NCBI GenBank assembly: GCA_045837725.1 | Contig: JBEWZL010000145.1 | Span: forward strand, 124,001 to 188,000 | DNA: 64,000 nucleotides | Direction of reading: 5' to 3' | Source: Vermamoeba vermiformis | Lineage: Eukaryota | Shown: piece by piece, positions 11,063 through 49,800 of the stretch | How positions within the stretch are numbered: the stretch's first letter is position 1 | How the letters are laid out: each line of letters begins with the position of its first letter | Position numbers and translations under genes: made by a program | The notes under the pieces: generated by a model | Databases searched by the model: none | What the model was told of the DNA's origin: nothing | Seen by the model: only the letters and a program-made list of their open reading frames with translations

Positions 11063-12826
11063 TTACTTAGTAGACGGCGAGAAATCGAGTTTTCCACGAG
11101 CAGTGCCTTGCTGCTTTTTGTTTTTCTTTTTTTTGTTCTTTTTATTTGAACTGTGTTGCTTAGCATCGAGATGTTCGTTAGTCTTTTGGATCTTCGTTGC
11201 TGGCTCTTCACTTTCAATATCATCCCCACGTTCTTCATCAGATCCGTCATAATCCATTGTATCGTGGTCGCTCTGATGTCCATTGTTATCAGAATCCAAT
11301 TTTACTGGTGTTTTCGGAGAATTTAATTTCGTTGGTGTAGCAAATGGTCCAATTGAATTTTGACGCACTAATTTCTTGGCTTTCGGACTCGGCATCAATT
11401 TCAATGCTTCGTAACGGTCCTCTAACGCCTTTACTTTCGGTATTATAGTCGGTAGGTCAGTGCCGGTATGGTCTTTGGAATAAACATAGACGTATTGTTC
11501 CAAGAACGCAGAAGGCAGCATTAAACTGATGTCTTCGGGGTGTTTCCTCGAAGCTCGGTCACTATCACTCGCATAAAACCACGTCTTCAGCAGCGGATGT
11601 TCGTTCTTCAGCGCGTAGTTGTACGAGACTGGCGAGACAAAAGCATTGGGCAGTTCATTCAAAGCACTGCTAATCACTTCTGTCATGCCTTGCGGGGACT
11701 TCTTCGCATCCAGTTTGATCTTGCACGCTAATTTGTATAATTTTCGTTCTCGTAGTTGTTTAATGAGGCCACGTGCTCGAACCATTTTCGGATCTGTTGA
11801 CCTCGATCGTTCAATCTCTTCAATAACGGTGTCTGTTAATGTATAATAACTGTCTAGTGTTGGATCCACTAAAATCTCATCGATTCGAAGATACTCGCTA
11901 GCTTCAGTTAGAATATCTCCGATCATATGCTCCACAGCTAATTATTGGAATTAAATTAGCAAATTCATTCGAGGAATTAAAATCAAACCATTTGTACCTT
12001 TGATTACGGGATGAGAATAGACCTCGCGATGAAATGAATAGCACTGAAAACAGTTGGTGAATGTTAAACTCTTCTTTTTCACCGAAACAGATGTGTCGCT
12101 CTTCTTCATCTGTTTTTCTAATTTCACTGAACTGCATCAATCGGGTAAAGACGTTGCCTAATAAAGTTAAAAATCAGATCTCAAATCAAAATAGATAATT
12201 AGCGTACTAGCATCTAATCCAAGGTTGGCAGCATAACAGTCTCGTGCTAAATAGTCAAATTTATCGACGTCGATGCTGTTGTACGGATTTGACACGACTT
12301 CAAACATGAAAAGCTTATTCTTTGGCCAGCTGGCCGGCACTTTGCCGAGAATAATATAGCAAATATTATCGATATCACTAGGGCTTAGTCCTAATGACTG
12401 GGGAATATTTGCTAATATATTACGCAATAAAACCCCAGATGCGTGTTCATGAAATTTGGGATATTTTCTTTTTAATTCTGCATTCTTGGCTAAAAATACG
12501 TCTTCAAATGTGTGGCTGAATGGTCCGTGGCCTAAATCATGACATAATGCTGCTATTTCAATATGAAAAATATCCTCGTCTGTAATAATTTTGCCTTCTG
12601 GACTTCTTTTCTTTAATTCGCGCATCCACTTGCCAGCTAAATAACAAGTGCCTATTGAATGTTCAAATCTATTATGCGATGCACCGGGGAACACAAAATA
12701 AGCCCCGCCAAGTTGTTTTAAACAGCGCAGTCGTTGGAAGATCGGCGTATCAATAATTTTGAATAGCCTCTTGTCCAATGAGATCAAGCCATGAATAGGG
12801 TCGTGTATTTGTCTTTGGTTCTCCAT
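11063..12826 (-). CDS. SAMHD1: SAMHD1-like HD-domain dNTP triphosphohydrolase (no SAM domain); frameshifted near 12041 as given
   Basis: DPIHG, FQRLRCLKQLG, HNRFEHS, LCHDLGHGPFSH, DVDKFDYLARD; reading frame changes inside exon 2. Confidence 0.9.
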
Positions 12827-12983
12827 TTGTGGTTCTTGATCTGTCAAAAATAACAAAATAAAAAATATTTTTTTGGGTCGGAAAAACTCCGCAATAAAAT
12901 ATCAGCTTATTAACGACTAATAGAACTCTTAATAGTAGGCTAATATTTAACTAGTGTTATATATTTATTATTTACAATTAGAG

Positions 12984-14666: not shown

Positions 14667-15629
14667 ATGTTGCCGAAACGTAAGTAAAGGAGACTGACTT
14701 GCAAACTGAAAATTAACTCCGACTCCGATCTGACCAATTATTATGCAAATTTATTAAAAATTATTTTTATTTTATCGAATGGGCATACTGGTGAAAGCTA
14801 CATACAAGGCCTTATTATCATAATTATTGAAATTATTTGAACTCACCAAATTAATTTTCTAGAGCTCGTGACGCATATTGTGCGCAATGCAAAATCACTA
14901 TTAAGGCCAATTAATGCCAAGAATTATTCAATATTTTCCAGCAAACAAACCAAAAATAAGACAAGCAAAGCAGATCACGATCCAAAGTCAATCTGGAACA
15001 AATCCAGCTCTGCTTCACCTTTACGAACCTCATCAAATACACGAACACAAAATACTATAGTAGCCCGTTTATTATCAACTGAAGCGAAGAAGAAAATAGA
15101 GCCACAACATTCCATCGATCGAGATCCAACCAAGTTCACGGAACACATCACCGAAGACGAAACACTAGAAATCACTTCAAATGCCCCTGAAGACGATACT
15201 ATCACTGGCGGTGATGGCACACAAGTCCTCGGACGGCTAGATCCGAACAGAAAGCTAACGATGGTTTTCACGTGCAATGTGTGCAACACGCGCAGTGCCA
15301 AACAGTTCAGTTGGCTCGCATATTACCACGGTGTCGTGCTCGTGACGTGTCCTGGCTGCGACAACAAGCACTTGATCGCGGATCGACTGCACTGGTTCGA
15401 CGGCATGAGCGTCGAAGATTATTTGGCCAACAAGGGCCAGACAGTGACCAAGGCGCAAGTGTTCGAAGAGAGCATGTTTGACGGCCTCAGCGAGGAGAAT
15501 AAGAAAGAGATTATGGACGCGTGGGCCGGCAAGGACAAGAAGGAGGGCGAGAAGAGTAGCACTAGCACTAGCGTTAATAATAATCATAATGAAGAGACTA
15601 CGACTGAGACTAAAGCTAAGTCAGAGTAA
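14667..15629 (+). CDS. DNLZ: DNL-type zinc finger mitochondrial Hsp70 escort (Zim17/Hep1)
   Basis: FTCNVCNTRS..Y..GVVLVTCPGCDNKHLIADRL; short first exon MLPKQ spliced onto a basic, presequence-like N-terminus. Confidence 0.9.
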
Positions 15630-15827: not shown

Positions 15828-16591
15828 TTATTCAGTCATCGGTTCAGGAGCTCCGTTCTGTGCTTCAGCTGCGGCCCCTTCGCCTTCTTTCTTGAAATAT
15901 TCATCTTCGTGCCACACTGTAGTCGTATAATATCATTAGTTTCCATTTAAGAAAGTAATAGAGCGGATCCATTTTTTTTTTTGATCGTTACATGACGTTA
16001 TAAAACGGTATAATTCAGTTATACGCTTATATATATGTATTGAGCAATAGTAATACTCAAATTAGAGTATGTATTGCTGAAGAATACGCAAAGAGTTTTC
16101 TAGCAACGGTCGAATGACTTACCTGCTTTCGGTGCAGAGTTGATAGATGGCCGTGAATAATTAATCTTCAAAACTTTTCCGTAAAATTCAGCATTATTCA
16201 TATTATCCAAAGCATGTGCTGCATCTTCAGCTGACTCAAATTCGATAAATGCAAAACTTCTGTGAACGTCTGGAAATAGAATAAAAAAATTAGTAAAAAT
16301 ACAGGACCTATTTATAATTAATTTATAGTGTGTAGATTTTGATTTAATTGGTTCGTTGAATAGAAATAATTTTTTTGAAATTTATTTTAATTTTAGATCG
16401 AGACGTACTGGTTCCTGGATCAATAGGCAACTGTATTTCTTTAATTTCACCAAATGTAATAAATGCTGCACTTAAGATTCGTTCATTGACATTCTCATCC
16501 AATCCACCTAACCATCGAATTAGTTACCGTGGACTCCTACAATCTTAATATGCAACCTACCAACATATAGCGTCCTCTTTTCGTCAGCCAT
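15828..16591 (-). CDS. Stand-alone RRM protein of the PPIE/Cyp33 RRM type (no cyclophilin domain)
   Basis: Spliced: [68 protein letters not shown]..VW; absent from the ORF track. Confidence 0.85.
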
Positions 16592-16698
16592 TGTTGTTGT
16601 GTTATGTTTGGAACAAAGGACGAATAAAATGGAGAAAAATACTGGTGACAAGTCAACGAGCATTTTTTCTTAGCGACGAGCAGAAGAACACGTCTAAT

Positions 16699-17169
16699 AT
16701 GCAAGTTATAATTTGTGACTTAAGCAGAACATATGCGATACGAGTAGAGTCCAATACAACCGTGGAAGAGCTCAAACTTAAAATTCAAAATGCATCTGGT
16801 TGTCCGGTTGAAAAACAATTCCTCGTAGACTGCACGCAAAAAATTCCCTTAAATGACAATAATAAGACACTATCAGAATATAATATTCACGACGGATCAC
16901 AGCTAAATTTATCTTTAAAATTACGAGGTGGCGGGATGCAGGTCTTTGTCAAACTAGCCACAGGTCAAACAGTTACACTAGATCTAGAATTAAACGACTC
17001 AGTGGAGAATATTAAACAACTTGTTATTGAACGAGGTTGGGTGCCTGACAACTGTGAAGCACAGATTCTGCACCACGATCGCGAGTTAGAAGACGGTCGA
17101 TTGCTATGTGATTATAATATTAAGCCTAATGACTCACTATGGATAAGAATTCGAGTTCGCGGAGGCTGA
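16699..17169 (+). CDS. Tandem di-ubiquitin-like protein, intronless
   Basis: Two ubiquitin-fold units, MQVII...LKLRGG and GMQVFVK...RIRVRGG-stop. Confidence 0.85.
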   Translation: MQVIICDLSRTYAIRVESNTTVEELKLKIQNASGCPVEKQFLVDCTQKIPLNDNNKTLSEYNIHDGSQLNLSLKLRGGGMQVFVKLATGQTVTLDLELNDSVENIKQLVIERGWVPDNCEAQILHHDRELEDGRLLCDYNIKPNDSLWIRIRVRGG

Positions 17170-18046
17170 ATTGAGGACTAGATCTGCTAGAAACTTGACA
17201 CTTAATTTACTTTTACAGCCAAAAGACTCCGAGAACGATTTCAAGTGATTAAGCCCATCTAAAAAGATACTCTTAGTTTAGAATATTAATCAATGCCTAT
17301 TCAACGTTGGATAATGATTGCAAACCGTACTTTTGCAAACCCGAAACGTGCATCTCAGTATGTAAATAAAATTGAACTTTAAAATTGACGTCAATTGTTG
17401 ACATTGATATTTAGAATATACCTTAGTGATGGTGGCGCTAATTAAGAGGAAGAAAAGCAGATCTGTTCTTATGTTGCTCGTAAATTCCGCGTCTGCAATA
17501 TTCCTTGCTTTGAACTTAGACATACAAAGAGATCATACCATACGTATCACAATGGTGCGTATCGTGACGCAACTAACGAGATTAATCGCGAGAGTCACTC
17601 ACAAAGTAAAGCCGATCTTCAACAGCAAACGCGAACCGAGGGATTTTTTCATTTCAAGCGTGAGATTCATTGCCTAAATTGGGTAAATATCTTTCTAAAT
17701 TTCCCCATTTTCGTATTTAATCAAATTGAACTGTGAACAAAATTCGTTGAAGAGCGATTGAATTGGATCGCGTGTTTGAAAAGTTTTCAATGACTATGTT
17801 CTCGAAGGTGTAGGACCGAATTCGCGCCTTAAAACGCTCTGTTTACCGAGAAGTGGCGAAAACGGCTCCAGTTTCATGGTAATTTAGTAATTCCAATGAA
17901 GTTTCTGCGATAATTACGATCCAAGACAAATTTAAGTCCAGTTTCCTTGGAACTCACAAACGTTCGAAGAACACGAGCCGGAATAAATAAAAGGTGCGAC
18001 TTTTGAATTCGTTCTTTTGATATTTTGATTCAACGAGCAACAACAG

Positions 18047-35634: not shown

Positions 35635-38152
35635 ATGGCCAACAGGTTACACGATTTATATGGAACTCAGCCGCCATCCAGGAAAAAGCGAGCTCGAGAA
35701 GACGATGAAATTGACAACTTTGAAGCCAGCGGTACTGGACAAACTACAGTTGCTTCGCAGCATAAGCCAATTTTCGGCACACAGCCGTTATTCTTTGGAT
35801 TTGGAAGCAGCTTTCAAAACGACAAACCCCAAAATAATTTAAATCCAACTGACGATATCGAGGCATTATTAAATGCAGACCCAATGATGGGTACTAGTGG
35901 TGATATATTCCCAAATGCAAATAATTTTGGCTATTTAACTGCAAGCGGCAATTTCGTCGTAGATGGAGATCTGAATGGAGACGTCAGTGTGGACTATCAA
36001 GACCAAATGATGTTTATTGGTGAGGACGGCAACGTGCAGGGCCGTCCCTTGAACATGAGCATTGATAACAACTTCAATAGCAATGTCATCCATAATGTTT
36101 CTGAAGTACAAAGTCCGCCTTATGCAGCCTCAAATCCGATGACTCCTAATTTTGCTGCTTATTCTTCAACTGTTGGAGCTCAAATTCAAACTATCCCTTT
36201 GCAAGAACCCGCTACTGCCTCGATCGCAGCGAAAATTCTTACTGAAGAAAGAGTGAAGTTAAATAGTATTAAGGTACGTGCTATTGATATTTGCCGTGGT
36301 ATATGAATTTTTAGCAAAATTTTAAAAATGATTCTGACTTAAATTTCCAGATCGACCTTGAAAAATTAAAATGGGAGCAAAAAGAGGCATTGAGCGCAGC
36401 TGTAGATAATGACAAACAAAAACAAATGGCACTGTGGGGCGGAATTGAGAAGAAGCAACAAGAACTGAGAAAGAGAATCGAGGAGACTAAGCACATGTTC
36501 AATAGACTGTTATGTGAATATATTTTGGAGCCTATTGATATTTGCAGAGTCGTAAGTGCGGCACTTGAATTCCACTTATTGAATTATACTGAATATTTGT
36601 GCGTGCTATTTTTAGGCTTCGTTTAGCGGCGAAATCGAGCTTGAATCTCGACAACTTGAAGCCTATGAAACAGAGTTATTGTGGACTATGAAGCCTCAAG
36701 CTAATTCAGAAAGGTACACGAGGGCACACGCGTTCAGTATTAGGCTTTTATTAATACCACTTGCGACACAACAGATTACCAGCGCTGTTGGTCATCACAA
36801 AACAGCCGTTCCCTCGCTCAGTCAAACAAGGCAAACCGATGGAAGACGGTGTCACTGTGCGCCTATTGACAGGCACATATTATCAAGTGAGTTGTAGTGT
36901 TGACAAGTACTCGTGAGATGTTACTAATGTGTTCGAAAAGGTGTGGCCGACAGGTCCGGTTCGTGCGGATATTGTTACGGACTATACATCGCGATCAAAG
37001 AAGAATCCAGTCACTGTACAGAATAACACAAAGGCCATGCAGAACAACATTGCTGATTTCAATGTACGTTTGATAACGTTATATTCGCCTTGGGCCGTGC
37101 TAATATACTTCTAGGACTTGATTTTACCTCACGGCACACGTAAGAAGACCATTCATTTGAAGTTCGCGGTTGAAGTACAAATTACTCGACGTGATGGCAG
37201 CAGTATCAAGCGCGTGATCGAGTCTGATGGCTCAAAACCGTTCATTGTCAAAACAAATGAGAATCAGTGGGAAGAGTCTGAAGGTATTCTATTGAAGACT
37301 GACGCGTTTGGCACGCACAACGAGGTGCCATGGTACAAATTCGTCAACGCGCTGCAGAAGAGATATTTATTGGCCACGAAACAAGATTTACAAAAGCCCG
37401 CGCGACCGTTGTCAGTGCAAGATATCAACTACATTTTCCACATCAAGTTCACGGGCCCTTCGCACAGTAAGTCGTGCAACGATGCAGTTGTAATCAATTA
37501 TATTGTATTAATGTGCTCGTTAGTGCACCTACCGTCAAAGGATTCAGTCATCACCGTGAAGCAATACGAGCAGTTCTGGGACTGGTTTGGCCCTGGTCTG
37601 CACAAGATCAGATACCAACGCCACATGTGCCCGTTGTGGGTCCGAGGGTGAGTTAAAGCCACACGTTTATAACCATGTTTGTACTGACCTCAGTGCAGTT
37701 TAATTTGCGGTTTCATCAACCGAGCAGAGGCTGATCAAGTGCTTGCCAAGGCACCTGCAGGCACCTTCTTGATTCGATTCAGCGAGCGACACCCTGGTGG
37801 TTTTGCTATCGCTTACGTGGCCAATGAAGAGCCACTCATAAGACACTACTTGATTCAACCTGACGACGTGTTTGGTGCCAAAAAGACACTGCCGGACTTC
37901 TTGGGCAGCGCGAAGAACTTTGAGTATGTCGTGCAAATCAATACCGACGACGAGGGCAACAGAATTTACAGACAGTTGGGCAAAGATGCCTCGCTGGCTG
38001 AATTCTACGCGAAGAGAAATGCTGAGGACACAGACGGCTACGACAATCAGCTCGACACAACGAGCCACAGACTGGGCACGATGTCACTCAATCAAGCGCA
38101 GGTTAATGGTGTGCCACCTCCTGGCGCAGTTAAGATCAAAACACCAAAATAA
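35635..38152 (+). CDS. STAT: STAT transcription factor (Dictyostelium-type)
   Basis: LVITKQPFP, FIVKTNENQWEESEG, FWDWFG, SH2 motif GTFLIRFSER, C-terminal DGY tyrosine. Confidence 0.93.
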
Positions 38153-46891: not shown

Positions 46892-49800
46892 ATGAGTGAA
46901 ACTGGCCAAGATGCACAGACAGAAGATTTCTTTGGCGATTTCCATGCCGCTAATGTGAATACTGCACCTCAAAATCCCGAGTTGATTGACCAACATAATT
47001 CTAACGGCAATGAGGCAACGACCAAGGTAATCTGACGTAGCCAAAATTTTGACTGTTACAAGCCAACAAATAATTAAAAATTTCTTATTTCAACGCCAAA
47101 ACTACATTAATATATCCTAATATTATTTATAGTAATATATAATATATTTTTGCGTATTTTAGAAGTGAAAATCATATTTTGATCTAATGAAAATTATTAG
47201 GTTGAGGATACAGCTGCACCTGAGTCACAAAATAATAACGACCAACCTACTCAAGACACTAACGCCGTTGTTACCACCGACACGACATCTGGTGATTTTT
47301 TCAACCCTGACTTTTCATCGTCGAGCAACACGGGTTCAGGTCAAGCAGCTGACTTTTCTGAACTTAAATTTCCCAATGGTTCATTGCCTGCTACCAGCGA
47401 CTTGTTAGACATTAACTTTGGCAACCTTCCTGTCGAGCCCACACCCCCAACTCCCGGCACACCGAGCATTGAAGTGCACTTTGCAGGCCCGAGCGATCAG
47501 AATAGTGAAGTGTCCAACGAGACCAAGTCGGACACTGACAGCTCGGCCCCAACAGACTCGTGGAGTGTGAGCACTCAATACCCCGAGTCGCGTGCTGACG
47601 GTGAGAGTGTCAGAGATGATGCCAAGTCAGAACAGTCCCTCGAAGACAAGTCACAACTGGCTGAAGACGGTAGTGACGCTTTTGACTTCCCTACACCAAA
47701 GGAAGGTGTTGTGAATGACCAGAAAGACGACGCGCCTGTCAGCAACACGACTGATGCCTTGGACTTTGACTTCCCTGCCCCGGGCACACAGCCTGAGCAA
47801 CAAGCCCAAGAAGCTGTTGAAACACCCAAGAGCGAAGAGCCTGACGAAAGTGTGCTGTTGACACCTGTACAGGCCTCAGAGGACAAGCCATCAGAAGTGC
47901 AAGATGACATGATCAGCGTGACCAGCGACACTGTGCCCACGAGCACAAACAATGACTTTGCGTTTGACGACGAATTCAAATCTGCTCCAGTGGCTACTGA
48001 GGGCTCTGTTCCATCAAACAATGCTACGGAGATCAAGTCTGATAACTCATCTCTCGAGCACTCGACAAACGAGGAACACGAGAAGAGCAATGCAAAGATT
48101 ACTCAAGAAGAGAAGGTGCCTGAGACTACAAACACTCAACCCTCAGAGGACTTTTTTGGCAGTACACCTCTTGCGTCAGCTACTGAAACTCCTGCCAACG
48201 AGTCAACTTCATCCGACTTTGATTTCCCTGCACCAAGTGAACCACAACCGCAACAGCCAATAGAACAAAGCAAGCCAGAGGAGCCTGAATCTAAACCTGA
48301 TACTTCGAGTGGCAACAACGATTTCACTTTTGACACCGAATTCACTTCAGTTGCGACATCAGAGAACAAACAAGCTGAAGAGCCTGTTCAAGAGAAGCCC
48401 GCGGAAGAATCAAATCAGCCCAAGTCAAGCAACGATTTCGAGTTCGAGAGCGAATTTACTTCAGATCCTACTCCCACTAATGAAGACAAACAGCCGGAGA
48501 ATGTAGAAGAAAACAAACCGACGGAGACCCCAGCCAAGTCTGACAATGATTTTGAATTTGAGGGCGAATTTACCTCTGCTACCGGCGTGTCTGCAACCAC
48601 CGCTACTTCTGAAGAGAAGCAGCCCGAGAACAGTGAAGAGAGCAAACCAGTAGAGCCTAGCCCAGTCAAGTCTGACAATGACTTCGAATTTGAATCCGAG
48701 TTCGCTTCTGCTCCAACAACTGCCGTTGAAGAGAAGAAATCGGAGACTTCCGAAGAAAGCAAACCGGTGGAGACCACTCCAAGCAAGTCAGACAACGACT
48801 TTGAGTTTGAGGGCGAGTTCACATCGGCCCCGTCTCAACCCGCTGATGAGAAGAAGAGCGATAACGACTTCGAGTTTGAAGGTGAATTCACTTCAGCTCC
48901 GACTTCCAGCGTGCCAACTGCCACTAACAACACGGCGAACACCAATGATGACGATGATTTCTTTGACAGCGAGTTCCAAGCAGCACCTACAGCGCCACAA
49001 GTGCCACAAGAACAACCCCAAGCACCCAAGAGCGGTGGTACTTTCGAGGCTGATTTTGACGAAGACTTTGAAGGCTTTGCTCAAGCCCCGACCACACCAC
49101 AACCACCCGTCCAGCTTCCACAACCAGTCGCTCCTCAGACTCAATGGCTCTTTGACGGCAGTGAGACTGAAGTGCACGATCGCTTGCAAGCACTCGTGTC
49201 AACTTTGTTCGTGGCACCAGTGCCGAGCAAGGTGCTGCCCGACATTAACACCACAGTGGAAGAGAAGCTCGAAGAATTGCGTAGCTCAGCCCCTGTCGCT
49301 GACACCACACCTGTGGCTCTCCCTGCCCCGAGTGTATTTGCTGAACATTTGAAGGAACTGCTGGCCTCAGTCGTAAGTACCTTTATTACTGTTTGTATTA
49401 GAGCGAACAGGATCGTTGACCGGTCCTTTCACTGACAGCCACGCCCAAATAGGGCCCCACAACCCCCGTCCCCGGCCTCCAACCTGCGCGAACTCGTCCT
49501 AAACGATCCCCGTTTGACACCCATCTATCGAAAAAAGATATTCTAAGCCTCTTAAAGAAGGTGCGTAGACTGCATTAACGCACGTCAACTGAGTTCTGAC
49601 TCTTTTTCTGTCATTAGGAAACATCAGCGGTGTTGCACGTGTCCCCAAGACCCACACTGCCCTCAGCACGAGGCAAGAAGAGAAAGAACAGTGCAACTCC
49701 CTCACCCAATACGACCCCTGCAACCGCAAAACAGCCTCCCACACCACAGCCCAAGGCATCCACGACTCAACCCAAAGCCGGACTTTTACCACCAGCTCAA

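Follow-up and report, generated by a model that had tools for sequence, protein, structure and literature searches.

A conserved head-to-tail pair of strongly diverged ubiquitin-like units in Vermamoeba vermiformis, and its possible processing into two tags

The di-Ubl Gene and Its Product

A 64,000-nucleotide stretch of the Vermamoeba vermiformis genome (assembly GCA_045837725.1, contig JBEWZL010000145.1, positions 124,001 to 188,000; hereafter the window) carries a gene for two ubiquitin-like (Ubl) units in tandem, here called di-Ubl. It is a genuine, conserved gene, the product of which is a head-to-tail fusion of two different, strongly diverged Ubls derived from ubiquitin. This product may be a precursor of the polyubiquitin type from which two Ubl tags are cut, an explanation that is preferred here with somewhat less than even confidence.

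The gene is an uninterrupted open reading frame (ORF) of 156 codons at 16699–17169 on the forward strand, with an ATG at 16699 and a TGA at 17167–17169. Downstream of the preceding stop the frame is open from 16549, and there is no in-frame ATG before 16699. The predicted product (P0001) matches the Pfam ubiquitin family (PF00240) in two stretches with an E value of 1.6e-24 and 85.9 bits (cut-off 25.4), so the match to ubiquitin is not due to chance. A preliminary description of the window, made from the DNA sequence alone, had reported two divergent Ubl units, the first ending in LKLRGG plus an extra Gly and the second in RVRGG directly at the stop, and both the ORF and the two PF00240 stretches reproduce this layout. 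The two units of P0001 are only 25% identical to each other, and neither has the near-invariant 76-residue sequence of canonical ubiquitin. Compared with a ubiquitin-like unit of another protein (P0171_1), unit 1 shows 39–43% and unit 2 shows 43–46% identity; the lengths are 77–79 residues, with indels.

Relatives and Conservation

A search with P0001 alone recovered one relative among 26 candidates (P0002, 75% identity), while a profile search using both P0001 and P0002 recovered 48 proteins among 1294 candidates. The family members in this set are P0002, P0164 (61% identity) and P0166 (58%); the remaining proteins are at 47% or less. P0164 belongs to a cluster of five near-identical variants (P0164 and P0320–P0323), all of 156 amino acids (aa), three of which carry the automatic name 'ubiquitin C', on contigs of up to 657 kb. 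The family considered here consists of eight sequences from four lineages, five of the eight being the near-copies of the P0164 cluster. The match to PF00240 is also significant in P0002, P0164 and P0166.

All eight sequences have intact frames, begin with MQV, end unit 1 with KLRGG and have a Gly-Gly in unit 2, so that Gly-Gly ends are present in 16 of 16 units. Differences in length are whole codons. P0001 and P0002 have GGG-M at the junction between the units, where the remaining six have GG-M. In seven of the eight, Gly-Gly is the last residue pair, while P0166 continues for another 13 residues. The earlier statement that the protein is ready for conjugation without processing is therefore correct for the window and for most of the family, but not for P0166. 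Of the 79 columns of unit 1, 40 are invariant, as are 31 of the 77 columns of unit 2, and both Gly-Gly ends are among them. Identity between lineages ranges from 64 to 76% for unit 1 and from 49 to 78% for unit 2; across the deep split of the family unit 1 is the better conserved (64–73% versus 49–56%).

In a careful phylogenetic reconstruction using 38 ubiquitin-like units, all unit 1 sequences formed one clade (support 100/100) and all unit 2 sequences another (99/98). Both clades were seen again in a FastTree reconstruction of 180 units (99 and 98). These separate clades indicate that the two-unit design is old, predating the split of the lineages, and that it has since been maintained across them. 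A sister relationship between the two clades was considered and not adopted, as it is weak in the FastTree reconstruction (74), and in the 38-unit tree both branch, together with a ubiquitin-like unit, from one polytomy. Since each unit is orthologous throughout the eight sequences and their four lineages, the lineage-restricted and conserved di-Ubl that had been suggested at the outset is borne out. All assemblies in which the family has been seen so far are of microbial eukaryotes, and the lineage of the window is probably amoebozoan.

Diverged proteins with several Ubl units are very common. In a search of representative proteins, 14,867 library entries matched P0001 at an E value of 0.001 or better, many at 29–36% identity. 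No orthologues emerged from this search, its best 150 matches all being multi-unit, polyubiquitin-like proteins (29–47% identity) that outscore two-unit relatives by summed score. A scan of metagenome contigs, with patterns fitted to P0001 and P0002 only, found no relative, and loci of the P0164 type may be missed by such patterns. The only metagenome locus returned (L001, 6001–6081) was rejected as a chance match: it is a bacterial-looking frame of 763 aa that shares only the word WVPDNCE with unit 2.

A separate protein from a public assembly (P0197, 161 aa) carries a U-box at residues 8–78 followed by a single Ubl at residues 86–157, ending LKLVGGY. The motif LNDNNKTL.DYN is common to this Ubl and unit 1, which are 39% identical over 79 residues, and in the 38-unit tree the Ubl is a weak sister to the unit 1 clade (81/45). 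The motif and the tree position suggest that a Ubl of the unit 1 type may also occur within an E3-like protein, as one of its own domains.

Residue Pattern of the Two Units

Residues of unit 2 were assigned from two alignments, by HMMER against solved ubiquitin chains and by MAFFT against the ubiquitin-like unit of P0171. Both give the same picture as the preliminary description: unit 2 of P0001 keeps K6, K27 and R72, and carries the changes K11Q, K29L, K33R, K48R, K63P, L8A, I44L and V70R (ubiquitin numbering). There is a one-residue insertion after position 40. P0001 has neither the seven lysines of canonical ubiquitin nor its L8/I44/V70 patch. The only lysines retained at the seven positions are K6 and K27 in unit 2 and K27 and K29 in unit 1, and the patch reads A/L/R in unit 2 and L/V/S in unit 1.

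The same positions were counted across the eight family sequences, that is, in 16 units (Table 1). The absence of Lys 11, 29, 48 and 63 from unit 2, first noted in P0001, is a trait of the whole family, and the loss of the patch residues L8, I44 and V70 from unit 2 is likewise upheld, with all three positions variable. The change K33R is correct for P0001 but lineage-specific, the lysine being kept in most of the family. Judged from these alignments, the internal tail of unit 1 is more tightly constrained than the terminal tail of unit 2. Because Lys 48 and Lys 63 are absent from both units, and the I44 patch of unit 2 is not conserved, tags made from this gene would neither build nor be read like canonical K48- or K63-linked ubiquitin chains.

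Table 1. Residues at ubiquitin-numbered positions in the eight family sequences.
Position	Unit 2	Unit 1
Lys 11, 29, 48, 63	0/8 at each	K29 8/8, K11 1/8, K48 0/8, K63 0/8
K6	8/8	0/8
K27	8/8	8/8
K33	5/8	0/8
8	A, I, P, V	L 8/8
44	L, R, Q	V 7/8, A 1/8
70	R, I, A	S, A or T
72	R 2/8, K 6/8	K invariant
73	V, I, P or W	L invariant
74	R 2/8, K 6/8	R invariant
75–76	G-G invariant	G-G invariant

Fold and Likeness to Known Systems

An AlphaFold2 (AF2) model of P0001 has a mean predicted local distance difference test score (pLDDT) of 82.5 and a predicted template modelling score (pTM) of 0.50, and consists of two beta-grasp units, each with the strand-strand-helix-strand pattern. The junction between them is predicted to be flexible (Table 2), and the model gives no fixed arrangement of the two domains.

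Among solved structures, the best sequence matches of P0001 found by HMMER are linear di-, tri- and tetra-ubiquitin. The same chains occupy the top ranks of a Foldseek search, with E values from 2.6e-17 down to about 1e-14, 37–41% identity, and a probability of 1.00 to di-ubiquitin chains. ISG15 chains appear first at rank 32 (E 5.9e-13 and weaker, 20–25% identity), and no FAT10 chain is present among the ranks shown (up to 50). A protein-language-model look-up placed P0001 nearest to a 'polyubiquitin-like' cluster (0.94), followed by the ISG15 and 'Ubiquitin D family' clusters (0.92); for kinship with FAT10 this is a lead only. Kinship with ISG15, FAT10 and NEDD8 was judged from the ranks in the solved-structure searches and, for NEDD8, also from position 72 and the start of unit 2. 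The preliminary description had called the protein ISG15/FAT10-shaped. That applies only to its two-domain outline, while in sequence and fold it is nearer to linear di-ubiquitin, and by descent di-Ubl is an offshoot of polyubiquitin.

With polyubiquitin and linear, Met1-linked di-ubiquitin di-Ubl shares the head-to-tail RGG-M connection without a linker, a PF00240 match in both units and an intronless coding region. It differs in that the repeats of polyubiquitin are near-identical, whereas the two di-Ubl units are strongly diverged from each other, lack Lys48 and Lys63 and have lost the I44 patch in unit 2; two members of the family also have the extra Gly at the junction. The plant RUB1/RUB2 genes, which encode two different modifiers head to tail, are the closest precedent for the favoured mechanism, but neither unit of P0001 is a true ubiquitin (unit 1 is 39% identical to the ubiquitin-like unit). 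NEDD8 has an Ala at position 72, whereas unit 2 has R (2/8) or K (6/8) there and begins MQVFVK as ubiquitin does, so that it is not NEDD8-like, and the gene is not a ubiquitin-NEDD8 fusion. The plant ubiquitin-NEDD8 fusions are processed by C-terminal hydrolases into the two modifiers, and are described as unique to plants in the accessible part of one source (PMC3968751).

Vertebrate ISG15 resembles the di-Ubl product in having two ubiquitin-fold domains, a length of about 155–165 aa and an RGG C-terminal end. It differs in ranking below all di-ubiquitin entries, and the N-terminal unit of di-Ubl has a full KLRGG tail and no fixed interdomain packing is predicted. The N-terminal domains of ISG15 and FAT10 are not known to keep a tail of the KLRGG type. 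Mammalian FAT10 (ubiquitin D) also has two flexibly joined Ubl domains and a free Gly-Gly end; the accessible parts of the sources state that this end needs no processing (PMC7600729) and that the linker between the two domains is flexible (PMC6102260). The difference from FAT10 lies in the internal KLRGG, which is conserved in the di-Ubl family. Variants of the UbKEKS type have a few residues changed from ubiquitin, whereas the di-Ubl units depart from it at more than half of all positions and constitute a separate, old family. The gene behind UbKEKS, UBB pseudogene 4, is likewise derived from polyubiquitin and has variant units, which are reported as functional ubiquitin variants in the accessible text of one study (PMC7066184).

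Transcript-Like Coverage

A sequencing run from a close relative (run X4, the kind of run being a guess) includes a spliced contig of the neighbouring RRM gene, showing that the run contains RNA. Two contigs of this run, corresponding to 16715–16958 and 17009–17220, cover a copy of di-Ubl that is about 97% identical. There is no depth in the flanking intergenic bins, and none beyond 17241. The coverage of this copy is transcript-like. Among the sequencing runs listed as containing the di-Ubl stretch itself, none was of RNA. One Gly codon of the GGG junction (codon 77, 16927–16929) is missing from the X4 contig.

A Precursor of Two Tags, and Its Rivals

In the favoured explanation, the di-Ubl gene would be translated as a polyubiquitin-like precursor, and a ubiquitin-type C-terminal hydrolase would cut after the invariant LKLRGG of unit 1, releasing Ubl-1 (78 aa) and Ubl-2 (77–78 aa, with its Gly-Gly already at the stop). 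An E1 enzyme would then activate each Ubl via its Gly-Gly end, leading to attachment to target lysines. Judged by the Gly-Gly ends of its units, the product is probably conjugatable; we infer its cleavage, activation, conjugation and biological role. The invariance of KLRGG in all eight sequences, set against the variable tail of unit 2, suggests that the internal site is used and argues for cleavage rather than for an intact cap, weakening the earlier proposal of an uncut chain cap. The internal junction at 16924–16935 is a likely hydrolase cleavage site. The number of glycines at the junction varies (GGG in two sequences, GG in six, and the X4 variant without codon 77), which would be tolerable at a cut site. 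The invariant KLRGG, the flexible and direct RGG-M junction, the glycine variation and the better conservation of unit 1 all fit a precursor of two monomers, and as polyubiquitin and the plant ubiquitin-NEDD8 fusions work in this way, the model has a precedent.

Several points weigh against a precursor. Its cleavage, E1 activation and conjugation are putative steps. The Gly-Gly of unit 2 is itself kept in all eight sequences, which would suit an intact di-Ubl equally well, and FAT10 likewise has a flexible interdomain linker, as stated in the accessible text of PMC6102260. The extension of P0166 beyond its Gly-Gly means that readiness without processing is not universal. The G+C content at third codon positions (GC3) of the ORF is 0.318, below all 11 long frames of the window that were compared (0.347–0.599), a weak point when taken alone. 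The X4 contig over unit 1, at a depth of 3.7, has an extra A in the six-A run at 16838–16843, which in the frame of P0001 would create a stop at codon 53; faulty assembly may explain it, or the copy may be broken in that organism. Of the seven X4 substitutions, four change a residue (T20A, E23D, C45Y and P50H) and three are silent, which, as weak evidence, does not suggest strong constraint. The RNA-seq runs X21–X23, labelled with the same species as the best-matching DNA run, gave no di-Ubl reads at a likeness of at least 95%, compared with 14–28 reads on the RRM neighbour. The reads on that neighbour are, however, all 95–99% alike and show fixed differences, so they come from a strain or species other than that of the window, and the blank on di-Ubl is uninformative.

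The gene might instead specify an intact tag of about 17 kDa, similar to ISG15 or FAT10, which would stay uncut, be activated via the RGG of unit 2, and end chains or mark targets for dedicated readers, possibly in a response to infection. The two Ubl domains with Gly-Gly at the stop in seven of eight sequences would suit such a tag, as would the lack of Lys 11, 29, 48 and 63 in unit 2 and the variability of its L8/I44/V70 positions. It also gains from the language-model look-up, in which the ISG15 and 'Ubiquitin D family' clusters lie just under the polyubiquitin-like one, and from the recovery of ISG15 chains by the fold search. However, ISG15 is the weaker match there (20–25% identity versus 37–41% for linear di-ubiquitin) and FAT10 is missing from the ranks shown; the N-terminal unit retains its invariant KLRGG; the AF2 model does not fix the arrangement of the domains (pTM 0.50, low pLDDT at the junction); and the protein is not lysine-free, with all eight sequences keeping K6 in unit 2, K29 in unit 1 and K27 in both. 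An intact tag is unlikely on this balance, though not far-fetched. A narrower form of it, in which the gene would be an amoebozoan counterpart of ISG15 and FAT10 that arose independently from polyubiquitin, is attached intact without K48 or K63 extension, and is used against giant viruses or intracellular bacteria, is very unlikely. At odds with both is a polyubiquitin offshoot that is slowly decaying or not conjugated, weakly expressed or not expressed at all, and either a free binding protein with a ubiquitin fold or without function. The possible X4 frameshift, the predominance of residue-changing substitutions in X4, the lowest GC3 of the frames compared, the variable tail and surface of unit 2, the extended tail of P0166 and the abundance of divergent multi-Ubl proteins would all be expected of such an offshoot. 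Decay is harder to reconcile with eight of eight intact frames in four lineages, down to 58% identity, with the same start and in seven cases the same end. Each unit also forms a well-supported clade with many invariant columns, including both Gly-Gly ends, AF2 folds both units confidently, and transcript-like contigs lie over the ORF and none over its flanks. We regard a decaying or non-conjugated offshoot as rather improbable.

The preliminary description had also raised the possibility that the gene was acquired from a virus or retroposed. A recent acquisition from a giant virus, or the retroposition of a spliced mRNA, would account for a coding part without introns among many neighbours that have them and for a GC3 below that of the neighbours, and giant viruses do encode Ubls. 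Two scans of viral contigs with motifs of the family nevertheless found no relative, either among the 53 candidate stretches of the first or among the 105 of the second. In a library of viral structures the most similar entries are the ubiquitin inserts in pestivirus polyproteins (37–41% identity), the Ubls of giant viruses being at 9–30%. No A-rich tail follows the ORF, and the family is old, with the same two-unit design down to 58% identity. Since polyubiquitin coding regions are commonly intronless, the lack of an intron in di-Ubl needs no explanation. A viral or retroposed origin is extremely unlikely, and that part of the preliminary description is unsupported.

If the di-Ubl product is a precursor, it would join the plant ubiquitin-NEDD8 fusions as a second natural case in which one precursor yields two different tags; if it stays intact, it would be a di-Ubl tag that evolved independently. 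In both cases the known range of ubiquitin-like signals in protists would grow. Most descriptions of two-domain ubiquitin-like modifiers are from vertebrates, and no protist or amoebozoan two-unit Ubl like this one was found in the literature covered, most subscription journals lying outside the search. In the accessible parts of two reviews, ISG15 and FAT10 are listed as absent from the protozoa surveyed (PMC10673212; PMC7600729). Given that diverged multi-Ubl genes are so common, and that members of the family have already been filed automatically as 'ubiquitin C', the finding is a modest one at the level of annotation.

Genomic Setting

The features of the di-Ubl locus are listed in Table 2. 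Di-Ubl and an RRM gene on the minus strand (16123–16592, ATG at 16591) are divergently oriented, head to head, and the spacer between the two start codons is presumably a promoter region common to both genes. The RRM gene has two introns, the spliced X4 contig skipping 16270–16408 and 16506–16558.

Table 2. Coordinates of the di-Ubl gene and its parts within the window.
Feature	Position	Strand	Evidence
Complete di-Ubl coding sequence (P0001)	16699..17169	+	156 codons + TGA; PF00240 in two stretches; relatives at 58–75% identity
Unit 1, residues 1–79, diverged ubiquitin fold	16699..16935	+	Ends LKLRGG + extra Gly; AF2 pLDDT 84–94 over residues 1–70
Internal R-G-G-G junction, codons 76–79	16924..16935	+	KLRGG invariant in family; pLDDT <50 at residues 76–78
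Unit 2, residues 80–156, diverged ubiquitin fold	16936..17166	+	Begins MQVFVK, terminates IRVRGG; without Lys 11, 29, 48, 63
C-terminal R-G-G codons	17158..17166	+	Immediately 5′ of stop codon
Spacer of 107 bp, di-Ubl ATG to divergent RRM gene ATG	16592..16698	.	Start codons; spliced X4 contig ending at 16592
Minimal 3′ untranslated stretch	17170..17220	+	Run X4 record 3 contig covers 17009–17220

Introns of the other neighbours were judged from Pfam domains lying across open frames and from this one spliced contig. In several of them (Adaptin_N, 2OG-FeII_Oxy_2 and succinyl-CoA ligase) a single Pfam domain is divided among two or three open frames, while the domain of the zf-DNL neighbour (14841–15626) lies within one frame. 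The observation that di-Ubl lacks an intron, unlike its neighbours, thus holds for its coding part, with zf-DNL as a neighbour in which the domain is not split. The window contains no paralogue of di-Ubl over its 64 kb, and no gene of the ubiquitin system near it except for an F-box/LRR frame about 28 kb away.

Among the bins of the window, the 2 kb around di-Ubl rank second in AT content; the window has the character of a eukaryotic genome with short introns. Three other loci of the window stand out. At 37115–38149 on the plus strand, STATa_Ig, EF-hand_12 and SH2 domains lie in two neighbouring open frames, which we take to be the architecture of a Dictyostelium-type STAT (STATa). Together with an exon of the succinyl-CoA ligase gene, this hints at Amoebozoa but does not settle the matter. 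For that exon, the first named match with both nearly full coverage and more than 60% identity is from Arcella (62%), below a plant (49%) and a squirrel (42%) that score higher; dictyostelids come next at 59–62%, and a sea urchin (63%) and fungi (about 56–62%) have similar scores. An open frame of 744 aa at 47201–49432 (plus strand) has no Pfam match, is acidic and of low complexity, and contains about eight repeats resembling SDNDFEFE(G/S)EFTSAP. An HD-domain gene occupies two long open frames at 11066–12901 on the minus strand, and may be SAMHD1-like.

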